Shown: positions 29,806 to 54,864 of the stretch, in pieces
Position numbering within the stretch: the stretch's first letter is position 1
Layout of the letters: every line of letters starts with the position of its first letter
NCBI GenBank assembly: GCA_012441205.1
Contig: GCA_012441205.1_4705.1
Direction: 5' to 3' (one strand)
DNA from: a phage
Length of the DNA: 64,000 nucleotides
Notes under the pieces: generated by a model
What the model saw: only the letters and a program-made list of their open reading frames with translations
Database searches by the model: none
Told to the model about the DNA's origin: nothing
Position numbers and translations under genes: made by a program

Positions 29806-31278
29806 TTATTTATTCAAGTATCTGAAATCCCACTTATCTTTACGTCGTTTATCGCACTTAATGTCAGGATGATTAACACGATGCCTAATAGTTGTTGCCG
29901 ATAGCTGGCTGAGATTCTCAGCAGATCGTGCGCCAAGAACAACGAGTTTTGTGTCGTCTGGACGCGTAACTTCTACTGCCCGATAATGCTTACGTAACAC
30001 ATCACGCCAATATTCACGACGTTCTGGTTCAGCATACTCAAGCATGTAACCGTTAACATCTACTAAACCGTAGCTTTCGTTTAATCGAGAGGTAGCGGCT
30101 GGTTTACTAATACCGATTGCTTTAGCCGCATCGACCACGGTTTTATACGGGGTCTCATTACCGTCTCTATCTACAACCACAATGAAATCTGGACGTGAAT
30201 CGAGTAGCTGCTGTCTGCGTTCGACGGCTTGTTGATGAAGCACCATGTTAACGTGTTCGAACCCGTAACCTTCTGGGCCACGCCATCCTGGATTGTTGTT
30301 CGCTCGATAAAGTATCGTCGATGATTTCACTCCAGTCTGACGCGATGCCTCGTTTGCGCTATGAACAACCGTGGTAGAGCCATCAGGATGATATATCCGT
30401 ATCTGGTTCATTATACCGGAACCAATGAAGTTACCATCGGCTGATTTAATGTCCGGCCATGGTTGCGGGTCATCTTTGAATTTAACCACCCAGCGGTTGT
30501 TAAACAGCTTAACTTTTCGAACATGTTTGCCTAATGTCGTATCCGTAACACCTGCGACCACTGACGCTTGTGTAATGCTCAGGTACTCAGTAACGGTATC
30601 GTTCCAAGTATCCCAGAGCAGAACCGGTTTATTGTCGTCACGTAAACCATGTTCGATAGCATGCAGGACATTACGACTTCTGGTTGCCCATTCCAGATTG
30701 TCAAGAGAATAGTTCCACTTATCAGCATCAAGATGATTAACGTCCATCTTATCGACATTAGCCGGATATTCCCGCCACGCCAACATCAAGCAGCGATGTA
30801 AAACCTTAGTTCTCGTTGTATCTCGACAATCGTGACGTAGACTAATGAATACGTAGTTATCCTTTTTCGGATACGATCTGCATTCCTGTCCATCCTTGCG
30901 GGAGATAACTCGCCCTTTCTCATTTATCAGATAACGAGTATGTCCAGGAATAACACGATAACCAGGGTACTTAGCGATCTCATAAGCAGGCTCGAAACGA
31001 TAGGATAAGTTATCAACATCCCAATTAGATTCGTCGCCGTCAACAAACATCGCTTTGACGTACTTCTGTGTTTCAATATCAACCAGGATGTTTTTGTGTG
31101 CGATACAAATCAATGCTGGGATATTGAATTCGCGACCAGCTAAAGTAACAGTGTCGCCGTTTCTCGGTATCGCGACGTGGGTATCACGATACCGTAAGTT
31201 TCCATAGCCGTCTATTTCAATCCAGCTCAGAAACGGAATAGATATAAATTCTTTTTCAGATACTCGCCATTTAAACAT
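29806..31278 (-). CDS. HNH homing endonuclease (intron-encoded)
   Basis: 490 aa; HNH motif VNHLDADKWNYSLDNLEWATRSRNVLHA and an N-terminal NUMOD4-like segment YPGYRVIPGHTRYLINEKGRVIS; own ATG at 31278 with AGGTG RBS; located in the 5' peripheral region of the intron. Confidence 0.8.
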   Translation of the reverse strand: MFKWRVSEKEFISIPFLSWIEIDGYGNLRYRDTHVAIPRNGDTVTLAGREFNIPALICIAHKNILVDIETQKYVKAMFVDGDESNWDVDNLSYRFEPAYEIAKYPGYRVIPGHTRYLINEKGRVISRKDGQECRSYPKKDNYVFISLRHDCRDTTRTKVLHRCLMLAWREYPANVDKMDVNHLDADKWNYSLDNLEWATRSRNVLHAIEHGLRDDNKPVLLWDTWNDTVTEYLSITQASVVAGVTDTTLGKHVRKVKLFNNRWVVKFKDDPQPWPDIKSADGNFIGSGIMNQIRIYHPDGSTTVVHSANEASRQTGVKSSTILYRANNNPGWRGPEGYGFEHVNMVLHQQAVERRQQLLDSRPDFIVVVDRDGNETPYKTVVDAAKAIGISKPAATSRLNESYGLVDVNGYMLEYAEPERREYWRDVLRKHYRAVEVTRPDDTKLVVLGARSAENLSQLSATTIRHRVNHPDIKCDKRRKDKWDFRYLNK

Positions 31279-31344: not shown

Positions 31345-32820
31345 CTAAATTGAATCACCACCAAGTCCGGCGAGGTATGGCGCAGGGACAATAGTCGTTT
31401 CTACGAACGAAGCATTAGGTAACCAGTCGGGGTATTCCCATGCGATAAATCGTTCATCCGTTATTGGTTCCCAGTTACTATCCAGTTCGGTTTTCGGTTT
31501 TGCGGCGACGGTTGTACGTGCGTAACAGGTTAACGGGATAACGGATTGCATACCTGATACCGGATAACGTGTTACCATCGCAGCCAGGTTATTCCAGTAC
31601 TTATATCCGGCAATATAGATAAGCTCGGTGTAAGTAATGGGGTGAACATCCGCGCCAGGTTTATTCAACATCTCCGGGGGTAATTCACTCATGTCACGGA
31701 ATAACCGAAACGAATCGTTGTTCACATAGACGAGGCAAAGATATCGTCCATTGACCATGATAGGCTCGTTACGCACGCCAGGATCGCTTAAGGTGTTCAG
31801 TAAACGTTCTATTCCGTCCCATGTTGTAAAGTCATCGATGGTGTCTGGATCAAGCGTGACGCGCTCACGTTCCATCGTTTCGGTATCAATAAGTTCAACT
31901 TCTGTAACATCACGGACAAATATTTCCTGCAAAATACCGGTACGTAACGCATGTTGCGTTACTGGGAGAGCGGCTTTACTCATCTGGTATAACCCTAACT
32001 GAACCGCGGTACAGGAAGGCTGGTTAGGCGACCCTAATACCTCCGTTGTGGGGTTAATTGCCGAAATAACGTTACGGGTTGAGTTCCAAACGCGACGTGA
32101 ACCAAACTTACCTTGGAAGATCCCTTTCTTACCCTGGAACATATCCAACAGTAAAGCGTAGATATCGTTGAATGTTCTCTGTAAGCTCCAGCGCTGGCCG
32201 TCGTAAACGGGATCGGAATAATCTTTTAATCCATCAGGGACGGTGTTAGAAATTGCAAGGAAACGACGATACAACTCCGTGATTTCTTGCTCGCTTTCAT
32301 ACCCACCTTCTTTTACTTCTATTTCACGTAAGCCTGCAGGCAATACCAGTAAGTGACGGGTCATCGCTTTGAACATGTTCTCTTCGACAACTTTAATTCG
32401 TAGCTCTCGTTGAGCTGAACCCGTTGAAACGAACTTGATATCCGCGACGTGTTGTGCAAAGAACCCGTATCCTGTTTGTCCTGTTAATGCATCAGACGCA
32501 ACGAAGTCGCGTTGTTCGGGATCCCACCGAGCGTACGCCTTCCCCGACATGATATCGCCATAGAGGTGTTTTAATCGAATGAGACGGTCGTAAATGACAG
32601 GATGCAGGATTTCAACCTTGCATTCAATCACCGCAAATCGACGGTCTCGATCTTCACTACCCGCACTACCAAAGATGGTGTAAGAATAGAAACCATCATC
32701 GTGGAAATTACCGGTGCTTGGGTCACGAATGCTCATGCTCGTGATCTTGGGGAGAAAACGTAACTGCTGTTTATCGAGGTGTAAAATACTAATATTAAAC
32801 GGCTCTCTGACTTTAGCCAT
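31345..32820 (-). CDS. RNAP beta-prime-like N-terminal subunit, exon 1 at ORF level (last about 57 codons are probably intron sequence)
   Basis: Start moved to the ATG at 32820 (MAKVREPF..., AGAGGAG RBS about 9 nt upstream). MFQGKKGIFQGKFGSRRVWNSTRNVISAINP matches the beta-prime [27 protein letters not shown] region, and TRYPVSGMQSVIPLTCYA matches NRAPTLHRLGIQAF...HPLVCAA. The ORF then runs into a stop at 31345 without the expected DFDGD; the likely 5' splice site is near 31516. Confidence 0.65.
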   Translation of the reverse strand: MAKVREPFNISILHLDKQQLRFLPKITSMSIRDPSTGNFHDDGFYSYTIFGSAGSEDRDRRFAVIECKVEILHPVIYDRLIRLKHLYGDIMSGKAYARWDPEQRDFVASDALTGQTGYGFFAQHVADIKFVSTGSAQRELRIKVVEENMFKAMTRHLLVLPAGLREIEVKEGGYESEQEITELYRRFLAISNTVPDGLKDYSDPVYDGQRWSLQRTFNDIYALLLDMFQGKKGIFQGKFGSRRVWNSTRNVISAINPTTEVLGSPNQPSCTAVQLGLYQMSKAALPVTQHALRTGILQEIFVRDVTEVELIDTETMERERVTLDPDTIDDFTTWDGIERLLNTLSDPGVRNEPIMVNGRYLCLVYVNNDSFRLFRDMSELPPEMLNKPGADVHPITYTELIYIAGYKYWNNLAAMVTRYPVSGMQSVIPLTCYARTTVAAKPKTELDSNWEPITDERFIAWEYPDWLPNASFVETTIVPAPYLAGLGGDSI

Positions 32821-33065
32821 GGAGACACTCCTCTTTACCACCACCGGCTGCGGCGGTATCATCTGAACACACGAGAGACGTAATGGGTGATGGCGTCACC
32901 CATCGCTTCCTTGCTTGAGGCGAGGAAGTTATTAGGTTACGTACCTGCCTGATTTTATCAGGTGGGCGATGTGTGAAGTTACGCTTCAACATTATCAATG
33001 CCGAAGGTAAACTTCGTGCATCACGTTCCAACGTAACATGGGAACGTATCGAACTGGAGGTATAC

Positions 33066-45606: not shown

Positions 45607-46310
45607 CGTTGCTCTCCAGCTTCACCGGTTAACATCTGCATATCGGGAGACGTTTTAATTTTCTTCTCGTACTCTTTTGTTTGTTTGAATACCAACTCAC
45701 CGATTTCTTCCAATTCTTCAACGGTGACGGTATGCAAATAAAGCAACGGAATAATCCAGGTATTCGCACGAAGCATATCCCGAATATCATCAATGGTGGG
45801 TAATTCCGTAAAGAACTGTTCGTCTACCGCGAATAAATCCCGGGCGATACCATCCACCAGTTTATGATTGCTTTCATGGATCCATGCAAAACTTCCAGCA
45901 AGATGATCGATAAGCATATCGATGTCATCGACAGTTGAGAACACTGTACGCCGAACGTGCGTTGTGAGGTCCATCGTAAAACCCATTAACGAAGGGGTTT
46001 CCTCAGAACGGAGTTCACGCCAAAGACGGATCATGTTTTCAGGGATAAACAAATCATGGATGAACGTCACACTGAATTTCGTAACCCAGTCACGAATTGT
46101 TGCCCCTTTGGAATATTGTTGCGGTGGGGAATACAAATACACCCAGCGTTTCGTGTACGCGATAACTTCCTTTCGCATCGCCGCATCTAAAACAAGCACG
46201 TAACGATCGGAAGCAAGCTCTTCTAATAAAAGCTCGAACGCAGTATCACTCTCTGGGGAGAACGATCGTTTTATTTCTGCGATACGTCGTGATAACCGAC
46301 CACGTAACAT
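45603..46310 (-). CDS. hypothetical protein (235 aa)
   Basis: ORF, start/stop overlap with neighbours. Confidence 0.5.
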   Translation of the reverse strand: MLRGRLSRRIAEIKRSFSPESDTAFELLLEELASDRYVLVLDAAMRKEVIAYTKRWVYLYSPPQQYSKGATIRDWVTKFSVTFIHDLFIPENMIRLWRELRSEETPSLMGFTMDLTTHVRRTVFSTVDDIDMLIDHLAGSFAWIHESNHKLVDGIARDLFAVDEQFFTELPTIDDIRDMLRANTWIIPLLYLHTVTVEELEEIGELVFKQTKEYEKKIKTSPDMQMLTGEAGEQR

Positions 46311-46312
46311 AA

Positions 46313-46987
46313 TTAGCCCTCATCAAGGTTATTCTGGAGATGCATCGCGGTGAGGATAACGCCAACCGCCGAAACCGATTTTGCCTTGCTGTCTTCAGGG
46401 AGCTGCTCCAAGCTTACGGTACCTGTTTCTAACAGCATGCGGTTCATCGCGTTGAACTTCTTATCGTCACCACCACGAGCCTGCATCAGCTCTCGGTTCA
46501 CGTTCGGCATCGACCGTCCTAACGTCGCTTGCATTTCCGGCTGGCTCCAAGTGGAACCTTTACTATCACCCGTCGGCTGATTGGTGAGCTGGTCCTTGGT
46601 GTTGTTGTTTTTCGGAATCGAAATTTTAGCACTCAACGTTTCGGCTTGTCGGCGGTTTGGAATCAGGTACAATCTGGTTGGGCGGTCACGAAGCACCAAT
46701 TGCCCTGTTTTCTGGTCGGTGAGATAAATGCGTTGGAAGAAAGGGAAACCGTATTTCTTACCGACTTCCAACGCACGTTTTATCGTCACCTCGTTTTTGT
46801 TCATGTTGGGTACCCAGATGGGTAGAATCTCTTTCTTATCCCGACATAAACGCATATAGGCATCAAACGTCTCATCATCGATTTCAGCAAAACGTTTTTT
46901 GTAAATAGCGTAAGTCGGGCTCGATTCACCCACCAGGTCTTTGATATACCCAAGAATGAATTTTTCTGCTGCAGCGCGGTTGGACAT
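46313..46987 (-). CDS. hypothetical protein (224 aa)
   Basis: ORF in minus-strand block. Confidence 0.5.
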   Translation of the reverse strand: MSNRAAAEKFILGYIKDLVGESSPTYAIYKKRFAEIDDETFDAYMRLCRDKKEILPIWVPNMNKNEVTIKRALEVGKKYGFPFFQRIYLTDQKTGQLVLRDRPTRLYLIPNRRQAETLSAKISIPKNNNTKDQLTNQPTGDSKGSTWSQPEMQATLGRSMPNVNRELMQARGGDDKKFNAMNRMLLETGTVSLEQLPEDSKAKSVSAVGVILTAMHLQNNLDEG

Positions 46988-46996
46988 AAACGTCTC

Positions 46997-47338
46997 CTAT
47001 TGTCGTGTCTGTTGCGGAAATACCCGAAACACCTGGACAATGATGTTCTTGTCCTCGCGGTTGGCGATGTCGATCATGTGTTTTGTTCCAGGACTTTTGA
47101 AATCCCAGAACGCAATTAAATGCGTAATGACATCGCCCATCCACTCATTGCGTCTGAATCCAGCACCTTTACGATAAGGACCATCCCAATCGGCAGGAAA
47201 CGTGGTGTATTTAAACCCGTAATCCTTCGCGTAGCGGCGCACATGCAAATCAGCGCCTGAATGCGCACCGCCAGCAATGAGATGAACTTTGTCGTGAGGA
47301 AGGTTGTGTAACATCTGGTTCATACGCTTTTCGAACAA
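46997..47338 (-). CDS. hypothetical protein, possible SLOG/DprA-like Rossmann-fold domain
   Basis: 113 aa; LIAGGAHSGADLH resembles the GGAxGxD glycine-rich loop of SLOG/LOG/DprA-type proteins. Weak, motif-only call. Confidence 0.3.
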   Translation of the reverse strand: MFEKRMNQMLHNLPHDKVHLIAGGAHSGADLHVRRYAKDYGFKYTTFPADWDGPYRKGAGFRRNEWMGDVITHLIAFWDFKSPGTKHMIDIANREDKNIIVQVFRVFPQQTRQ

Positions 47339-47391
47339 GGGATAATCATCCCAGTAGCGTGATCCCGATACCCCTACACGATAGGGTTCGC

Positions 47392-47712
47392 TTATCTTCC
47401 ACCGCGCAATGACTTTACGTTGCGTGCGATAAAGGGTGCAACGTAATCACGGAAATTATGGATCCATCCTTTAATGGGTTGGTTGTCTAGTAAGCACTCA
47501 CGTACCGAAAACGTACTTACTTCTAATACACCAAACTGTAGTCGCCAATAGCGATTGATTTCAGCTTGGGTATGTTCTAATGTCATGTACTCAGGAACAC
47601 GAGCCAATAGGTCGTGTTTAAATTGCTCAGCAATCGCTGGTTGATGTGACGCAATTGTCTGCGTGATAACATCAATCAGTTCATGTGCATGCTTGATAGC
47701 AGGTGCGGTCAT
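47392..47712 (-). CDS. hypothetical protein (106 aa)
   Basis: ORF downstream of the RecA-like gene. Confidence 0.4.
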   Translation of the reverse strand: MTAPAIKHAHELIDVITQTIASHQPAIAEQFKHDLLARVPEYMTLEHTQAEINRYWRLQFGVLEVSTFSVRECLLDNQPIKGWIHNFRDYVAPFIARNVKSLRGGR

Positions 47713-47724
47713 TTATTTAGCCTT

Positions 47725-49215
47725 TTATTTTTTACTCGGACGATTCAATGCGGGTACCGGGTTCTTTGGTTGCTTTGTCTTTTCATCCATCCAGTACGGG
47801 AAGTACTCACCAGTACGCATACGCAATAAGTCCATTGTGGACAGGAACGGCAGCGGGTTAGGATCGTCCAGATACGTCCAGTAACCACGCGTGTTTAACA
47901 ATACATCCCAATCGAAACCTTTTGCTTTAAGATCGTCGTACAGTTCCTGTGGGGTGCAATACAGCTGTGGGTTTTCGTAAACCTCTTGACGCCAGAGATT
48001 ATGCATTTGACACAGCTCCGACGTAATTTCCAGAGCACGCTGTAAATACTCATCCTCTTCGCAGAGAGAACGAATGGTCGTACGCTGCAACGCAACATCC
48101 GGATAAATATCCAAATATACCGTTGAAGCACCATCAGCTGACTTACCACCTGACGCATGCATACCCCAACCACGCATCCAATCTTTATCACGCAGGTAGT
48201 GGTATTCCGTTAATGATGGTTTAACCCCTTCGCTCTGACTAACCACAATCGGGAACGGTAAGCCGGTGGGTCCGTTTTTAGCGCGCATGTTAAAGACTTG
48301 AATCAACTGCAGATCGGTATCCCCGATAAGGTTGTCACCAGGCCCACGCGGATAAAGGACGCGTTTATCCGCGTTCTGAAGAATCGTCAGTTTATCGATT
48401 TTCCAGAGGTTATTCGTATAAAACGTGAAGCGTTCCGGGACGTTCTTAAACTTCTCATCGCCCTTAAACCCTTTCAGTTTTCGTACCGGTTGCTGTCCCG
48501 GCATACCACCAACGTTTACACCGTCACCAAGGTGGGCGGTCATGGTAATGTAGATACCCGCCGACGCTGTGAGTACTGGCATCTGTGATAGAATCTGGCT
48601 TTTCGCAGCTGCTGAACGCATCGCTTCAGCATTCAGTTTTGCGCCACCCGCGGTTTCTTTATCGAACAGTGCATCAACGGCATCGATTGGTAATCCAGAG
48701 AAACTGTCGATGAGTACAACGGTCGGCAACCACCAGGTATAGTTCTCACCGTGTTTATTAATAAACGGAACGGCTTTGCGTTGAGATTTATCTTTGACCT
48801 TGTCGTCACGGAATTTCTTAATCGCATCAAACCAAATGTTACCGCTCATCTGAACAGCATCGGTGATAAACACACGTTCTTCTTCGAAAAGATCGACACC
48901 TGCGATATTAGACATGTTCATCGCAAGCGTTAAGATACGTGTTGTCGTTAACGACATTTCTGTGTCGTAAACGCTACTATTGCTGTTTGCGTAACGATCG
49001 ATAACGCGTAACAAGCGAAACATTATGAACGTGGTTTTGTTCATGTTGCCGCGAGCGCCTGCGCCCTCAACAAGCATCATGCCGCCGTTACAAATGCTTT
49101 CACCGTGTTTACCGACATAGTACCGACCACCAGATGTGGGAATATCCATTAAGCAACCAATGTTGAGATTAAAACGCATCTCTTCACCAGGAGAAAGGTA
49201 CTTATTAAGATTCAT
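47725..49215 (-). CDS. RecA/UvsX-like ATPase with deviant P-loop (putative recombinase)
   Basis: 496 aa; NGGMMLVEGAGARGNMNKTTFIMF aligns to the RecA P-loop region (GRIVEIYGPESSGKTTLTL) and TVVLIDSFSGL to the RecA Walker B (VIVVDSVAAL). The P-loop reads GNMNKTT rather than SSGKTT. Confidence 0.45.
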   Translation of the reverse strand: MNLNKYLSPGEEMRFNLNIGCLMDIPTSGGRYYVGKHGESICNGGMMLVEGAGARGNMNKTTFIMFRLLRVIDRYANSNSSVYDTEMSLTTTRILTLAMNMSNIAGVDLFEEERVFITDAVQMSGNIWFDAIKKFRDDKVKDKSQRKAVPFINKHGENYTWWLPTVVLIDSFSGLPIDAVDALFDKETAGGAKLNAEAMRSAAAKSQILSQMPVLTASAGIYITMTAHLGDGVNVGGMPGQQPVRKLKGFKGDEKFKNVPERFTFYTNNLWKIDKLTILQNADKRVLYPRGPGDNLIGDTDLQLIQVFNMRAKNGPTGLPFPIVVSQSEGVKPSLTEYHYLRDKDWMRGWGMHASGGKSADGASTVYLDIYPDVALQRTTIRSLCEEDEYLQRALEITSELCQMHNLWRQEVYENPQLYCTPQELYDDLKAKGFDWDVLLNTRGYWTYLDDPNPLPFLSTMDLLRMRTGEYFPYWMDEKTKQPKNPVPALNRPSKK

Positions 49216-49314
49216 TGGGTAAAGACTCCTTCGATTCTTCGACTAATTCTTAGTGTTCAGAGAATAACTATTTTTTAGTTAAGACTGACAACCGCTATTT
49301 CCACGAGGACAATC

Positions 49315-50157
49315 ATGCATAAATTTACCATTCCTGAAGACCCGATTACACTGCAGACCCTTTGGGATTCACATCGTGCTTTATCAATGGAAGGCTTTGC
49401 GCAAGACTTCGCTTCACTTACCGCAGTAACGAATCTTCGCAGTATGTTTACCAACGGTAAGAAGTTTGTTACCGATTGGCTTAAGAAACGTGATGTGACG
49501 GTTTATCCTAAAGTTTTCGATGACCTCGATACGATTTTTAGCAACAACGCTTACAGCGATCTCATTGGGTATCGTGCTTTTATTCCGAATGGTTTAAATG
49601 CGCCGATGTCAGATTATGTTGTTGCTTTAACTCAGAGCCTGGATAGCGTGATTGGCACCATCCTACCTGATTTGGATAAGCTGACCGTAACGTGCGCTAA
49701 AGCCGTCAACGACGTTAACTTCCGTCGTAGTAGTGGTATGGCTCAAACGCTACCTAAAAACGATCCAGAGAACGTTCTAGAGACGTTACGTGCGATGTTC
49801 AAACAAGGGACGGTAACACAGACCACTGTAGGCCGTGCATATAAGAACGAAGATGATATTCGTCAGATCGGAAAAGATCTGGATGCTTCCCGTATCCGTG
49901 CGCTTGACGTTAATCCTAAAGACGTGAAGAAGGCAATCGAACGTTTCATGGAGGTAGCTGACCGTTTAACCGAAATCCTGGTTCAAGACTACAATGAAGG
50001 TGCGGTGAGCAACGCGATGATTCGCGATATTAGTGACGCTATCTACCAAACAGCCAAGCAGGCTGAACTGTATGCGTTTCTCGTGAACGCTTTGGCTGAG
50101 GCGATCATCGCATATAACGACACTTGGGACGCCGTTAAAAAGAACGCGAAAAAATAA
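49315..50157 (+). CDS. hypothetical protein (280 aa)
   Basis: ATG at 49315; followed by a terminator hairpin. Confidence 0.5.
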   Translation: MHKFTIPEDPITLQTLWDSHRALSMEGFAQDFASLTAVTNLRSMFTNGKKFVTDWLKKRDVTVYPKVFDDLDTIFSNNAYSDLIGYRAFIPNGLNAPMSDYVVALTQSLDSVIGTILPDLDKLTVTCAKAVNDVNFRRSSGMAQTLPKNDPENVLETLRAMFKQGTVTQTTVGRAYKNEDDIRQIGKDLDASRIRALDVNPKDVKKAIERFMEVADRLTEILVQDYNEGAVSNAMIRDISDAIYQTAKQAELYAFLVNALAEAIIAYNDTWDAVKKNAKK

Positions 50158-50165
50158 CATAATAA

Positions 50166-50201
50166 CCCACCCTACTACCCCGTTAAGGGCGGTAGGGTGG
50201 G
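50166..50201. terminator. bidirectional hairpin terminator between convergent genes
   Basis: CCCACCCTAC...GTAGGGTGGG (10-bp outer stem plus inner pairing), followed by GATAAGGTTTATTTGCCG on the plus strand and by TTATTATGTTATTTTTTCG on the minus strand. Confidence 0.5.
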
Positions 50202-50208
50202 ATAAGGT

Positions 50209-50640
50209 TTATTTGCCGTATAGTTGTACCACTCGTTGTGTCGTAGGAACGCAGACTCTTACCAGAAGCTTTTTAATCTCCTGACGAATCGTTGCTTTAT
50301 CATCATAATAAAGCCATGGCGGAACGCGTTGCATTATGCACTGCACGGCTTCATCGTAGTTCGTCGTCTCATTAAGTAACGTCTCACTATCCAGATCTTT
50401 CCATGCAGTAATACCAAGTCGCGCAGCAAACATCAACGCTGAAACCGACTCAGCTATCTCCAATCGCTCATTCATATCCGCAAGACCTTTTAGCATGATG
50501 TAATTATCGTCATGCTGGTGCAGGGTACCATACAAACTTCCGAAGAGAAGTATGCGTTTAGCTTTTGCGGTTAAGAGGAACGATAGGAGAGCGTGTTTCA
50601 ACGGTTGTTTCTCACGTTCTACCTGTTCGACCATCACCAT
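50209..50640 (-). CDS. hypothetical protein (143 aa)
   Basis: ORF immediately downstream of the RNase H gene. Confidence 0.45.
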   Translation of the reverse strand: MVMVEQVEREKQPLKHALLSFLLTAKAKRILLFGSLYGTLHQHDDNYIMLKGLADMNERLEIAESVSALMFAARLGITAWKDLDSETLLNETTNYDEAVQCIMQRVPPWLYYDDKATIRQEIKKLLVRVCVPTTQRVVQLYGK

Positions 50641-50643
50641 TGA

Positions 50644-52170
50644 TTACTCCAACACATAACGTGGGTTACTGTATATGTTAGCCCATATACCAACGTCGTC
50701 TCCCGACTCAATAATCACAGCGAAACGAAACGCAACATCAGACTCGCGATATGTTACCGCGTACGCTTTCGTTTCCGGTGATGCTAAATAGCTCAAGTTC
50801 AGACGTTGAGGCAGGTCTAACCCCAAGGACATGGTACAAGACGTAACGCCCTGCTTATCGGGGGTCAGTCTGTAATTCACGTCCACCTTCAAGCTTTTCG
50901 TAACCTGCGTAATCGCACTATGCACTTTGGTAACCGTTTTGCCTTTCTTATCCTTTTCTGTTTCGAAAAGAACGTCGGTAATTTCGGTTACGACTAGACG
51001 CGGTGTGGATTCGCGGTTAGCGTCAAGCCATTCATCCAGTAACGTCTTTAAGAAGTTCAAGGAATCAATCGCACGCCAAGCAAGGTTAGGCGGGTTGCAC
51101 GCTTCCATTAAAATGGCTGTGTTGGATCCACCTAGCGGAAGATGCACGCTCTTACCGAGGCCTGTCGGACGCATCGTAAGATCGCACTCACCCTCAAGAA
51201 TATCGCGATGATATTGACGATGATGAAGGTTATCCGTGTATGCGATATACACTGACTCCGTTGTCCCATGCTCTAATACCCGAGATGCATGCGTACGCAT
51301 AATCTCAACAGCATCATCCGGCTTGCTTAGATAGATAACACTGTACGCACTATCGCTAATCCTTTTCCCTAACTCAAGACGTCCCTTGTTGTCTTTATCG
51401 GTGTTACCACCGAAATAGATGTAGCGGCCATCTTTCGCACGCTCTTGCTGCTGGTTGGTGGTAAAGTAGCAGCGTGAGAACGTAAAGAACGGGCTTATTT
51501 CCGGTTCGGGGCTCCAATACCCCTTAGCCGGAAGTTCGCGGCGTATTTGGGTTCTTACAGCCCAGTCCTGGTTTTGTGATAGATATGTTCCACGCGTTGC
51601 CAACATATCCGCACGTTCGTTACCAACATTGCCCTCATGTCCAGGAACATAGCGCAGCGAAATATCGATAGCGTCGCGCTTCGCATCCCTTATCGCGCTA
51701 TCGAGTTTCCGCCACCGTTCCGCATTCATTAACGGTTTATTGTCGGATTTAACCCAGTTGTTCTCTCGCCAATTAGCAAGATGGTTGGTGGCACCTACAA
51801 CAACATATTGGCTGTCCGACAACAGCTGGATCCGTTTTGCCCCCTTTGCTTTTCCAAGTTCAATCGCACGTATTGCGGCATCCAACTCAGCCTGATTGTT
51901 CGTTACATTGAAACCCAAAGCCTCTAACTCATCCACGTATTCCTTGGGTTCGACCAGCACAGCGTCTTTAGGAAAGTCGAGTTTAGGGTCAACATAACCG
52001 TATTGCGTTGGTTTGGGCTTCCCACTTTTTGAAGGTTCCAAGGTGCCTTTTATTTCTTTCACCATATCGTAGGTGTAGCCATGCACGCCATAGCCACCAT
52101 ACCCACTCGATGTTGGACGGGATCCTCCATCACAGTAGAAAACGGCACCAAGCTCAGTATTTCCTGCCAT
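50644..52170 (-). CDS. RNase HI domain protein fused to an uncharacterised ~330-aa C-terminal domain
   Basis: Start set to the ATG at 52170 (TGAGG RBS). The N-terminal about 180 aa match RNase HI: FYCDGGS (catalytic Asp), TNNQAELDAAIRAIE (catalytic Glu), LLSDSQYVV (catalytic Asp), YVPGHEGNVGNERADMLA (His/Asp), with a roughly 45-aa insertion after the first strand. Confidence 0.8.
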   Translation of the reverse strand: MAGNTELGAVFYCDGGSRPTSSGYGGYGVHGYTYDMVKEIKGTLEPSKSGKPKPTQYGYVDPKLDFPKDAVLVEPKEYVDELEALGFNVTNNQAELDAAIRAIELGKAKGAKRIQLLSDSQYVVVGATNHLANWRENNWVKSDNKPLMNAERWRKLDSAIRDAKRDAIDISLRYVPGHEGNVGNERADMLATRGTYLSQNQDWAVRTQIRRELPAKGYWSPEPEISPFFTFSRCYFTTNQQQERAKDGRYIYFGGNTDKDNKGRLELGKRISDSAYSVIYLSKPDDAVEIMRTHASRVLEHGTTESVYIAYTDNLHHRQYHRDILEGECDLTMRPTGLGKSVHLPLGGSNTAILMEACNPPNLAWRAIDSLNFLKTLLDEWLDANRESTPRLVVTEITDVLFETEKDKKGKTVTKVHSAITQVTKSLKVDVNYRLTPDKQGVTSCTMSLGLDLPQRLNLSYLASPETKAYAVTYRESDVAFRFAVIIESGDDVGIWANIYSNPRYVLE

Positions 52171-52220
52171 TGTAAACCTCATTAATCATTGTCCGTATGA
52201 TAGCCCAAAGTTGTACGGTA

Positions 52221-52772
52221 TTACCGATTACCGTCAGTTGACGTTGGTTGATTGCGATCGATTTTCATTGACCGTAATTTTCCACCATTAGTTACACACT
52301 GATTGCGCTGTTCGACGGAGGCCAGACTGTTACAGACATAATAAGTATCGATAAAACGCTCAACGCGTTCTTGAAACTTCCTCCCGGCAACTTGCTCTTT
52401 TTCAAAAGTTCGTAATGCACGATCGACCTCACCTTGGAGAATCCGGTTCTGTTCAACCATACTGTCTATTAAACGGCCTCGCACTTCGTTCGATGTGTAG
52501 AGTTGATGAATCAGTTCTCGGTTGGTGTCTCGCGCATAACGCAATGTTGCATTTTCCTGACGTAAACTACTCACGTCAGCCATCAAGGTAATGATTTTTT
52601 CGCCAGCGAATAACGTCACGATACCCAATACGATGAAAAAGCCCGTAATCAAGAATATCGAGGACTGTCGAGCTCCATCTCGACGATAGCGTGTGGGCGG
52701 TCGCTTACTTCGCCGAAACAACTCGCGAAGAAAAGGGAAAAGCCAGGGCAACGCCTTGAGTGTAGTAAACAT
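52221..52772 (-). CDS. hypothetical membrane protein with coiled-coil region
   Basis: ORF track starts at 52916; the ATG at 52772 gives a 183-aa protein with one predicted transmembrane helix (IFLITGFFIVLGIVTLFAG) and a heptad-like C-terminal region. Confidence 0.4.
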   Translation of the reverse strand: MFTTLKALPWLFPFLRELFRRSKRPPTRYRRDGARQSSIFLITGFFIVLGIVTLFAGEKIITLMADVSSLRQENATLRYARDTNRELIHQLYTSNEVRGRLIDSMVEQNRILQGEVDRALRTFEKEQVAGRKFQERVERFIDTYYVCNSLASVEQRNQCVTNGGKLRSMKIDRNQPTSTDGNR

Positions 52773-52826
52773 GCGTGTGTCCTTGATAGTATGAAATTTC
52801 CAATACAACTTAACCGAGGACGTCGA

Positions 52827-54167
52827 ATGATTAGTATTTTTGGTTTTTATACGTACAAAGGGTACGCTAATAACCACCCAAAAACCACGGCGAAATTCGG
52901 TGAGTTCAGTCAGCACAGTGCTACGTTCAGTCGCGAAATCGGCATCTATACCAACACGGCGTACGCACGTACGACCTTATTAGTGTTGAATGCCGAAAAC
53001 GAAGCTGGTGAAGCACAAACGCTGAATGACGACACCGCAGGCCGCATTCTTCAGGTTGGTCAATGGTTGCTGGAAAAAGCCTCATCAGGCGAAATCCAGG
53101 ATGACCGAGACCAGGTTATCGGCTACCTAAAAGACGACTTCACAACGTATCTGGATTCTATCGACATCCCAACACCCACCACCGATGGTACCGTCTATCT
53201 ACCGGCGTGGATCAGTTTCAAGATAACCGCCACCGGCGATGTCGTCAAGATTTGGTTGTCTGATAGCGTATTCCAAAGTCAATATCCAAAATACGAATAT
53301 GAAGTCGTTCCCCCTGTTCCTAAGGATCAGTTAGATACCTTCTTCGAAGATCTGGCAACATTGAAGAAACTGGTTGACAGTCGAAGCAGCGAGAAACTGA
53401 CCGAAGAAATCAACGAGGTGCGCGACCAATTCCCAGACACACAATTGTGGACGAAAACATATAAAGCGTACGATTACACCGACGATTCGAAATATATTAA
53501 TACCGATTGGACGGTGATTATCTACGGTGCAGCAGGTAACAACATTGATAATATCAAGGAGTTCCTGCAAAACTGGATTCTTAGCAATAGCACGCACGGA
53601 CGTCCAGACTGGGAAATCGTTCTGCCGGATCTTTTTATTCCGACGGAACACATCTTCATTCCAATCTGGAACCGCCACAGTGCGCCAGAAATGACCAATC
53701 AGGCACGTATCTATAGTCCTATATTCGATGATTCGTTGATGGATACCTACCTGAAAAACTTTGCTGATGGTTACGGCGAAACCGCCGAAGTCCGTAAATC
53801 GCTTCAAGCGGTGCCGACGTTGTGGCGCTCGATCGGTTTCTTAAGCGTTGGTAACTCACGTAACCGAGACGGTAAACTTAAGTTCTACGATCGTTGGCCG
53901 CAATACGCGCTCATCAGCACAACCAGCATCGATATTAACCGTATCGATGATGCGACACGTGAATTCATCACGTTCACTTACGAAATGCTGAAACTGGCAG
54001 AATCGCTGACCGAAGACGACCCGGTACCGTTGGGTTATAGTCGTGTTACGCGTGGTAGCAATAGCTTCTTAGCGAAAAGCCACAACGATGTTCAGTATCT
54101 CTTCTTAACAAAAGAAGCGTTCCTGAAGAAAATGCCGGATGAAGCCGACACGCCTGTTGGAGGTTGA
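52827..54167 (+). CDS. hypothetical protein (446 aa)
   Basis: ATG at 52827 with GAGGA RBS 6 nt upstream; stop overlaps the RBS/start of the next gene. Confidence 0.5.
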   Translation: MISIFGFYTYKGYANNHPKTTAKFGEFSQHSATFSREIGIYTNTAYARTTLLVLNAENEAGEAQTLNDDTAGRILQVGQWLLEKASSGEIQDDRDQVIGYLKDDFTTYLDSIDIPTPTTDGTVYLPAWISFKITATGDVVKIWLSDSVFQSQYPKYEYEVVPPVPKDQLDTFFEDLATLKKLVDSRSSEKLTEEINEVRDQFPDTQLWTKTYKAYDYTDDSKYINTDWTVIIYGAAGNNIDNIKEFLQNWILSNSTHGRPDWEIVLPDLFIPTEHIFIPIWNRHSAPEMTNQARIYSPIFDDSLMDTYLKNFADGYGETAEVRKSLQAVPTLWRSIGFLSVGNSRNRDGKLKFYDRWPQYALISTTSIDINRIDDATREFITFTYEMLKLAESLTEDDPVPLGYSRVTRGSNSFLAKSHNDVQYLFLTKEAFLKKMPDEADTPVGG

Positions 54168-54169
54168 TT

Positions 54170-54796
54170 ATGGCTGTAACACGCATGACGCCAAGTCCCG
54201 GTGCGGTCGGGGTATTCACAGTATCAGCGCCGTTTACCGTTGGTGCGTCAACGCTATATACCGTTACAGCGTTGCGAAGATTCAGCGAAGTCATCGGTAG
54301 TGGAATCGATCTATTTACGGAACTGTACGAACCGTTATCAATAGACAAATCCACATTCGAAGCGCATCTCGAAGCGAATGCTTATCTCGTCACGTTGCAA
54401 CCGGATTACGGTGCACCCGTACTGGTACCTGATACGTATATCACGTCGTACCCAAAGAACGATTCATTGCGGTATCGTCGCATTATTCTGGGTATCGATT
54501 TCGGGCCTCTTCCTCCCGGTCTTGACCTTTCGTATTTAACAACGATATTGAAAGGTAAGGCCAGTGATATTCTTGGTGTCGAACCTGAAGTTAAAACGAT
54601 GGAAATCACTCTCGATGATACCGTTACTCAGGAACAACATCAGATAAACGAAGCCCGTCGTCAGGCCGCGATAAAAGAGCGAGATACCATATACGCACGT
54701 TGTGAAACGCAAGAGAAGCAGATAACGGCTTTACTTGCAACCCAAAAGCAACTTATCAAATTGCTTCAAGACGCCGGTATCAATCCGACACCTTAA
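54170..54796 (+). CDS. hypothetical protein (208 aa)
   Basis: ATG at 54170 with GGAGG 8 nt upstream (ORF track starts at a TTG at 54164); translationally coupled to the upstream gene. Confidence 0.5.
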   Translation: MAVTRMTPSPGAVGVFTVSAPFTVGASTLYTVTALRRFSEVIGSGIDLFTELYEPLSIDKSTFEAHLEANAYLVTLQPDYGAPVLVPDTYITSYPKNDSLRYRRIILGIDFGPLPPGLDLSYLTTILKGKASDILGVEPEVKTMEITLDDTVTQEQHQINEARRQAAIKERDTIYARCETQEKQITALLATQKQLIKLLQDAGINPTP

Positions 54797-54802
54797 CATA
54801 TT

Positions 54803-54834
54803 CCCTCCTCCTTCCCTGTTGGGTTGGAGGAGGG
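54803..54834. terminator. hairpin terminator (conserved family)
   Basis: CCCTCCTCC-TTCCCTGTTGGGTT-GGAGGAGGG followed by TTATGCTGTC. Confidence 0.55.
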
Positions 54835-54848
54835 TTATGCTGTCAAGC

Positions 54849-54864
54849 AAAAAAAAAAAAAAAA
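54849..54864. repeat. 16-nt poly(A)/poly(T) homopolymer tract
   Basis: A16 on the plus strand between two hairpins in a convergent intergenic region; reads as T16 downstream of the minus-strand gene ending at 54910. Confidence 0.8.

Follow-up and report, generated by a model that had tools for sequence, protein, structure and literature searches.

Rhc (RNase H-clamp) is the name given in two October 2026 preprints (PMC13648698, PMC13648687) to a protein of the Chimalliviridae, the family to which the nucleus-forming jumbo phage Goslar belongs. The PhiKZ orthologue, PhiKZ155, is essential and has RNase H activity in vitro, and its D102N mutant still complemented the knockdown (Nature 2025). 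According to the preprint abstracts, Goslar Rhc binds DNAP-C as the essential third subunit of a DNAP-N/DNAP-C/Rhc polymerase, requires both RNase H catalysis and the clamp-derived domain, and contributes separably to late transcription, in a way that suggests the resolution of R-loops (PMC13648698). On the need for catalysis the results disagree, since nuclease-dead D102N complements in PhiKZ whereas catalysis is required in Goslar. The abstract of the second preprint describes a cryo-electron microscopy (cryo-EM) analysis of the PhiKZ complex, in which one Rhc subunit works with the polymerase thumb on duplex DNA and the flexibly linked RNase H domain remains unresolved; primer extension is strongly boosted by Rhc, and chimalliviruses are described as having no identified sliding clamp and no identified primase (PMC13648687). 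These October 2026 preprint abstracts also report that RNA carried by the incoming template strand may be degraded. Here we analysed a phage DNA stretch of 64,000 nt (contig GCA_012441205.1_4705.1 of assembly GCA_012441205.1), which as a whole is referred to as the window. Its minus-strand gene at 50644..52170 encodes a protein with this two-domain architecture, consisting of an N-terminal RNase HI domain predicted to be active and a C-terminal domain that is modelled as a diverged sliding clamp.

The coding region is complete (508 aa plus stop) and corresponds to Goslar_00246; the product of the open reading frame (ORF) is 100% identical to QBO64037.1 of the Escherichia phage Goslar record, where GenBank labels it 'putative ribonuclease HI'. 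The ORF at this locus extends on the minus strand from 52182 to 50644 and comprises 512 aa counted from the first ATG. Nevertheless, the ATG at 52170 is the better start, because a Shine-Dalgarno-like GAGG, read from the sequence (52177..52180, minus strand), precedes it with a 6-nt spacer, and because the alternative ATG at 52182 overlaps this ribosome-binding site. The same start is annotated for Goslar_00246 in GenBank and had been chosen in the original prediction, which was made from the sequence alone. A scan for promoters and terminators around the gene returned counts at chance level.

PHIKZ155 and Goslar_00246 share 26% identity over aa 8-501 (E 9e-49), and by sequence and by its location in a conserved syntenic block we regard Goslar_00246 as the orthologue of PhiKZ155. 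The preprint abstracts give no gene numbers. Goslar_00246 is most likely their 'Goslar Rhc', since the Goslar record contains no other RNase HI-type gene and since its product has the described architecture and is orthologous to PhiKZ155; we therefore use the name Rhc throughout. The locus tag invites confusion: Goslar_00246 is the RNase H gene, and 'gp246' denotes the chimallin ChmA in recent papers of the Goslar groups, which made this label unusable as a literature cross-reference. The finding is real but already known, as the gene is annotated in GenBank and the function of this protein has been described, for the PhiKZ orthologue in Nature 2025 and for the Goslar protein in the October 2026 preprints. 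The raw-sequence reading had nonetheless flagged a gene whose unrecognised domain hid a significant function.

The N-terminal part of Rhc (aa 1 to about 200; 51571..52170, minus strand) is a type-1 RNase H domain with D14, E95, D119, D188 and H178 as catalytic residues. All four RNase HI blocks named in the original prediction were found in the translation (YCDGGSR, TNNQAELDAAIRAIE, LLSDSQYVV and GHEGNVGNERAD). Pfam RNase_H (PF00075) matched aa 91-198 with 90.1 bits (cut-off 25.8; E 1.9e-25), covering profile positions 38-139 only. Of the catalytic residues, D119, H178 and D188 fall inside the stretch that HMMER aligned to RNase HI (query 87-197), where D188 stands opposite the D of the conserved NERxD motif; D14 was assigned from the family alignment and the structural model. 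The RNase H fold was recovered over the whole catalytic domain. Taken by its sequence, the N-domain is a genuine RNase HI domain that is predicted to be catalytically intact.

Weak sequence and structure matches to retroviral reverse transcriptase (RT)-RNase H domains could point to a remnant of a retroelement or RT system, in which RNase H normally follows the RT domain. We give this origin next to no credence. The best matches are cellular RNase HI/H1 and not RT-linked enzymes, a stretch aligning with the basic protrusion of E. coli RNase HI is present in Rhc, the RNase H domain is N-terminal, and a Pfam scan of the Rhc ORF and six flanking ORFs detected no RT domain. It was for this lack of an RT domain that a retroelement origin was rejected, in line with the original view that this is not the usual RT arrangement.

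The D-E-D-D residues and the histidine are kept in 157 of 166 sequences. This set was assembled from the query, from 20 word-index homologues and from those 150 representatives at 50% identity that scored best, each overlapping entry being counted a single time. Of the remainder, six are N-terminally shortened ORFs, and three are full-length proteins without the catalytic residues. In these three metagenomic homologues D/E/D/D is replaced by N/E/S/T (P0018), S/Q/E/- (P0041) and N/E/S/N (P0044), and the clamp-like C-domain is retained. Similarly, the orthologue gp219 of Klebsiella phage Miami (CPT_Miami_219, L003:2398-3888; 496 aa) has kept the C-domain, and its N-domain is not recognised by Pfam. 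A split gene had been suspected in Miami from a match to aa 218-508 only and from two places in the record, and was ruled out, as there is a single 496-aa ORF with a degenerated N-domain. The 95% conservation of the DEDD residues indicates that catalysis is normally selected, and the few apparently dead natural homologues indicate that its loss is tolerated in some lineages. These lineages fit the report that nuclease-dead PhiKZ155 still complements.

The beta2-beta3 hairpin of the N-domain further contains an insertion that is specific to the family (about aa 36-79, approximate boundaries; 51934..52065, minus strand), delimited by the AlphaFold2 model, the start of the Pfam alignment and conservation. 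The full-length model (20-sequence alignment, pLDDT 88.3, pTM 0.83) arranges the region as beta1 (7-18), beta2 (22-40), a loop (41-71), beta3 (72-90) and helix A from residue 91, the insertion consisting of extended strands and the loop. The hairpin thus spans residues 22-90, i.e. 69 residues, whereas that of E. coli RNase HI spans residues 18-42, about 25 residues. By the model the insertion amounts to about 44 residues, very near the roughly 45 that had been estimated after the first block. That the Pfam alignment begins only at profile position 38 indicates that the insertion splits off the first three strands. Sizing by pairwise alignment with E. coli RNase HI, whether global or local, was discarded: both aligners misplaced the N-terminal strands into the insertion, and the estimate therefore rests on the AlphaFold2 model. 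The loop residues T55, G58 and Y59 are conserved at 86% or more, the insertion is also present in PhiKZ155, and Y32 and T90 lie 58 residues apart in Goslar, the median for 160 homologues being 54. The insertion is a family trait.

The C-terminal domain (aa 203-508; 50647..51564, minus strand) is sliding-clamp-like in the structural model and putatively DNA-binding. It was modelled twice, inside the full-length protein and alone (aa 203-508, 19 sequences, pLDDT 85.3, pTM 0.86), and contains four main helices and about 17 strands, a layout that would suit a pair of clamp subdomains (about 203-333 and about 334-508, with an approximate boundary). When the domain was compared with the PDB by Foldseek, the first 35 matches were all PCNA, beta-clamp or 9-1-1 chains, the second being 3p83 through its PCNA chain; the best match reached E 5e-4 and a probability of 0.90, with TM-scores of just 0.2-0.3. 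Among the structural neighbours, 9-1-1 is followed by archaeal PCNA, by gp45 and the beta clamps of bacteria, and by HCMV UL44 and KSHV PF-8. As modelled, the fold class is clear, namely a strongly diverged sliding clamp, whose subdomain geometry probably differs from that of ring protomers.

Sequence comparisons of this domain gave no such indication. Pfam searched with aa 203-508 at E up to 1 returned no clamp family and only a non-significant match to DUF6647 (E 0.1). Searches of PDB sequences with phmmer and a 20-sequence profile found only RNase H chains among the matches listed and no deposited Rhc structure, and no clamp was among the best 60 of 173 matches. Because no clamp sequence family matched, the domain had gone unseen both in GenBank and in the original prediction, which described a C-terminus of ~330 unrecognised aa as a new partner domain. 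The absence of a Pfam match agrees with that description, but the domain is shorter (about 305 aa; aa about 203-508), and structure prediction, which had been proposed as a check, yields a diverged sliding-clamp fold and not a new one.

A clamp fold raises the possibility that the C-domain trimerises like PCNA or T4 gp45 into a closed ring that carries three RNase H domains and serves as a general toolbelt. Its size and helix count fit a two-domain clamp protomer, and its best structural neighbours, 9-1-1, PCNA and gp45, are ring-forming protomers. However, the single Rhc subunit cooperating with the thumb in the PhiKZ cryo-EM analysis and the lack of an identified sliding clamp in chimalliviruses, both as given in the abstract of PMC13648687, speak against a ring, as do the low TM-scores, which suggest a subdomain geometry unlike that of ring protomers. 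We consider ring formation highly improbable.

The strong purifying selection on the catalytic residues could also be explained by a stand-alone nuclease acting in R-loop or primer removal, with a C-domain whose sole task would be to bring the RNase H to DNA or the nuclear import machinery (PicA/Imp1), without any role in processivity. This is essentially the reading of the original prediction. Consistent with it, a subset of late transcripts falls when Rhc is depleted, the pattern being suggestive of R-loops according to the abstract of PMC13648698, and PhiKZ155 (Nlp2) is a PicA-dependent import cargo whose GFP fusion forms a punctum at the nuclear periphery (Nature 2025). We nevertheless regard it as very unlikely, since the interface observed by cryo-EM is the one through which Rhc enhances primer extension (abstract of PMC13648687), infection is still supported by nuclease-dead PhiKZ155 (Nature 2025), and the C-domain is retained in lineages with a dead RNase H domain. 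Together, these three observations argue for an essential function that belongs to the C-domain itself. What stands of a primer-removal or R-loop enzyme is the R-loop role and the possible degradation of template RNA reported in the literature; the clamp and the role in polymerase processivity had been missed.

The fusion of both domains is widespread. PHROG 3265 ('ribonuclease') matches Rhc aa 10-508 with E 2.7e-103, and tblastn with Rhc found 205 phage records in which 80% or more of the protein was covered, with Pseudomonas, Erwinia, Serratia, Ralstonia, Klebsiella, Salmonella and Vibrio among the hosts of the records listed. When 1.84 billion cluster representatives were searched by phmmer with just the C-domain as query, 685 proteins matched at E <= 1e-3, 444 of them at E <= 1e-10. 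Nearly all of the 150 homologues listed out of these 685 are 470-550 aa long and have the domain start at residue 200-260; fusion to RNase H is therefore the rule, and no convincing stand-alone C-domain was found among the matches listed. Six short matches (233-361 aa) were considered as stand-alone clamps and rejected, as they look like truncated ORFs: the N-terminal part is absent in all six, and the last RNase H motif is kept in three. Three of the 150 are longer (668-707 aa). Two of the long homologues, P0141 (678 aa) and P0114 (668 aa), contain a homing-endonuclease module of the GIY-YIG or I-TevI-like kind (about aa 46-145). It precedes RNase H profile position 36, which puts it in or next to the beta2-beta3 insertion, and it may have arisen by reading in frame through an intron or homing element.

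Altogether, Rhc is very probably a loader-free, single-copy processivity subunit, fixed to the polymerase by way of its clamp-like domain, with a tethered RNase H that removes template-hybridised RNA. The C-domain would act as a diverged two-subdomain clamp without forming a loaded ring. One copy would dock on DNAP-C of the split B-family DNA polymerase and, together with the polymerase thumb, would grip the duplex DNA leaving the active site, thereby boosting DNA synthesis. The type-1 RNase H domain, predicted to be competent, would be placed by its flexible tether to degrade RNA hybridised to the template, be it primers, transcripts or R-loops. Such clearing would sustain replication and late transcription in the phage nucleus, which keeps out most host proteins, presumably including host RNase HI and Pol I. 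Polymerase binding, the boost of polymerase activity, essentiality and the R-loop role enter this model as reported in the literature, and we infer from them the RNA clearing by a tethered nuclease.

An extension of this model is that the polymerase-tethered RNase H also makes primers, trimming transcripts of the phage RNA polymerase or R-loops into 3'-OH ends that the attached polymerase extends, in a manner resembling ColE1 or mitochondrial-style priming. It is proposed because chimalliviruses have no identified primase, and we consider it unlikely. The insertion with T55, G58 and Y59 would then position the hybrid or dock the nuclease on the polymerase, and the lineages with a dead RNase H (Miami-like phages, P0018, P0041 and P0044) would use a second RNase H or another priming route. 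If primers were made in this way, transcription would be coupled directly to the initiation of replication inside the phage nucleus.

With respect to the processivity subunit as such, Rhc bears on the way in which a self-sufficient replisome is assembled by a virus whose genome is walled off from the host cytoplasm. The protein is essential, specific to the Chimalliviridae and links replication to transcription. A clamp fold would have been turned into a fixed, loader-free processivity subunit with RNase H attached, so that RNA removal would travel with the polymerase.

The region around the gene is 97.9% identical to Escherichia phage vB_EcoM_Goslar (MK327938.1, NC_048170.1) over 8.9 kb aligned; given this value, the source may be a near-identical isolate or assembly. 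Positions 46000-54864 of the window correspond to 228444-237307 of the Goslar record, that is up to the end of the linear GenBank record, and the window therefore crosses the arbitrary termini of this record. Elsewhere it has jumbo-phage-like content, including split RNA polymerase beta subunits, a tail sheath, a large terminase, an SbcC-like protein and virion proteins. An ORF for an HNH endonuclease (phrog_59; 29806-31278, minus strand) adjoins an RNA polymerase beta-subunit gene (phrog_2986; 31345-32862, minus strand) and may encode a homing endonuclease like those known from the polymerase genes of chimalliviruses.

Three nucleotides downstream of Rhc lies the small co-oriented gene Goslar_00245 (143 aa; 50209..50640, minus strand), which matches phrog_9853 (E 1.9e-18) and is homologous to PhiKZ154 (BLASTP E 3e-8). 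PhiKZ154-156.1 were reported to be co-transcribed with PhiKZ155, and knockdown of PhiKZ154 was reported to give a phenotype (Nature 2025). A UvsX-like recombinase of 496 aa ('RecA-like'; 47725-49215, minus strand) matches phrog_97 with E 1.8e-32, has no Pfam match and occupies the same block position as PhiKZ152. It had been placed upstream of Rhc, but since Rhc is encoded on the minus strand it lies downstream, separated by one small co-oriented gene and one gene on the opposite strand. Between the recombinase gene and an RNA polymerase beta fragment, a 113-aa protein with a YspA/SLOG-family domain (PF10686, E 2.1e-8) is encoded at 46997-47338 (minus strand). The order PhiKZ149 (RNA polymerase beta fragment), 152 (UvsX-like by position), 153, 154, 155, 156 and 157 (virion protein) is shared with Goslar_00240 through 00248. 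The neighbourhood is thus a core block conserved among chimalliviruses, in which virion genes stand together with those for RNA polymerase and a recombinase, and not a repair operon as the supposed repair and recombination flavour had implied.

Compared with known systems, the Goslar protein shares family, neighbourhood and two-domain architecture with the Rhc proteins of the Chimalliviridae (PhiKZ155/Nlp2, PhiPA3 gp176; PHROG 3265), and is most likely the very protein studied; there is no difference of substance apart from an insertion slightly longer than the family median. In contrast to bacterial RNase HI and human RNase H1 (PF00075), it adds the hairpin insertion of about 44 aa and a clamp-like domain of 305 aa, the cellular RNase HI being a free enzyme of 155 aa. 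Ring clamps (PCNA, 9-1-1, T4/RB69 gp45, bacterial beta and the ASFV clamp) share the predicted fold class of aa 203-508 and are its best structural neighbours. The herpesvirus processivity factors HSV UL42, HCMV UL44 and KSHV PF-8 are functionally closest to the role proposed for Rhc, but have no nuclease domain and no detectable sequence relationship, and their structural likeness is weaker than that of the 9-1-1 subunits. The PCNA-RNase HII and PCNA-FEN1 toolbelts (3p83) likewise hold an RNA-removing nuclease on a clamp-fold platform at the replication fork; there, however, a separate nuclease is recruited by a PIP peptide, whereas the Goslar nuclease is of type 1 and covalently fused to the clamp-like module.
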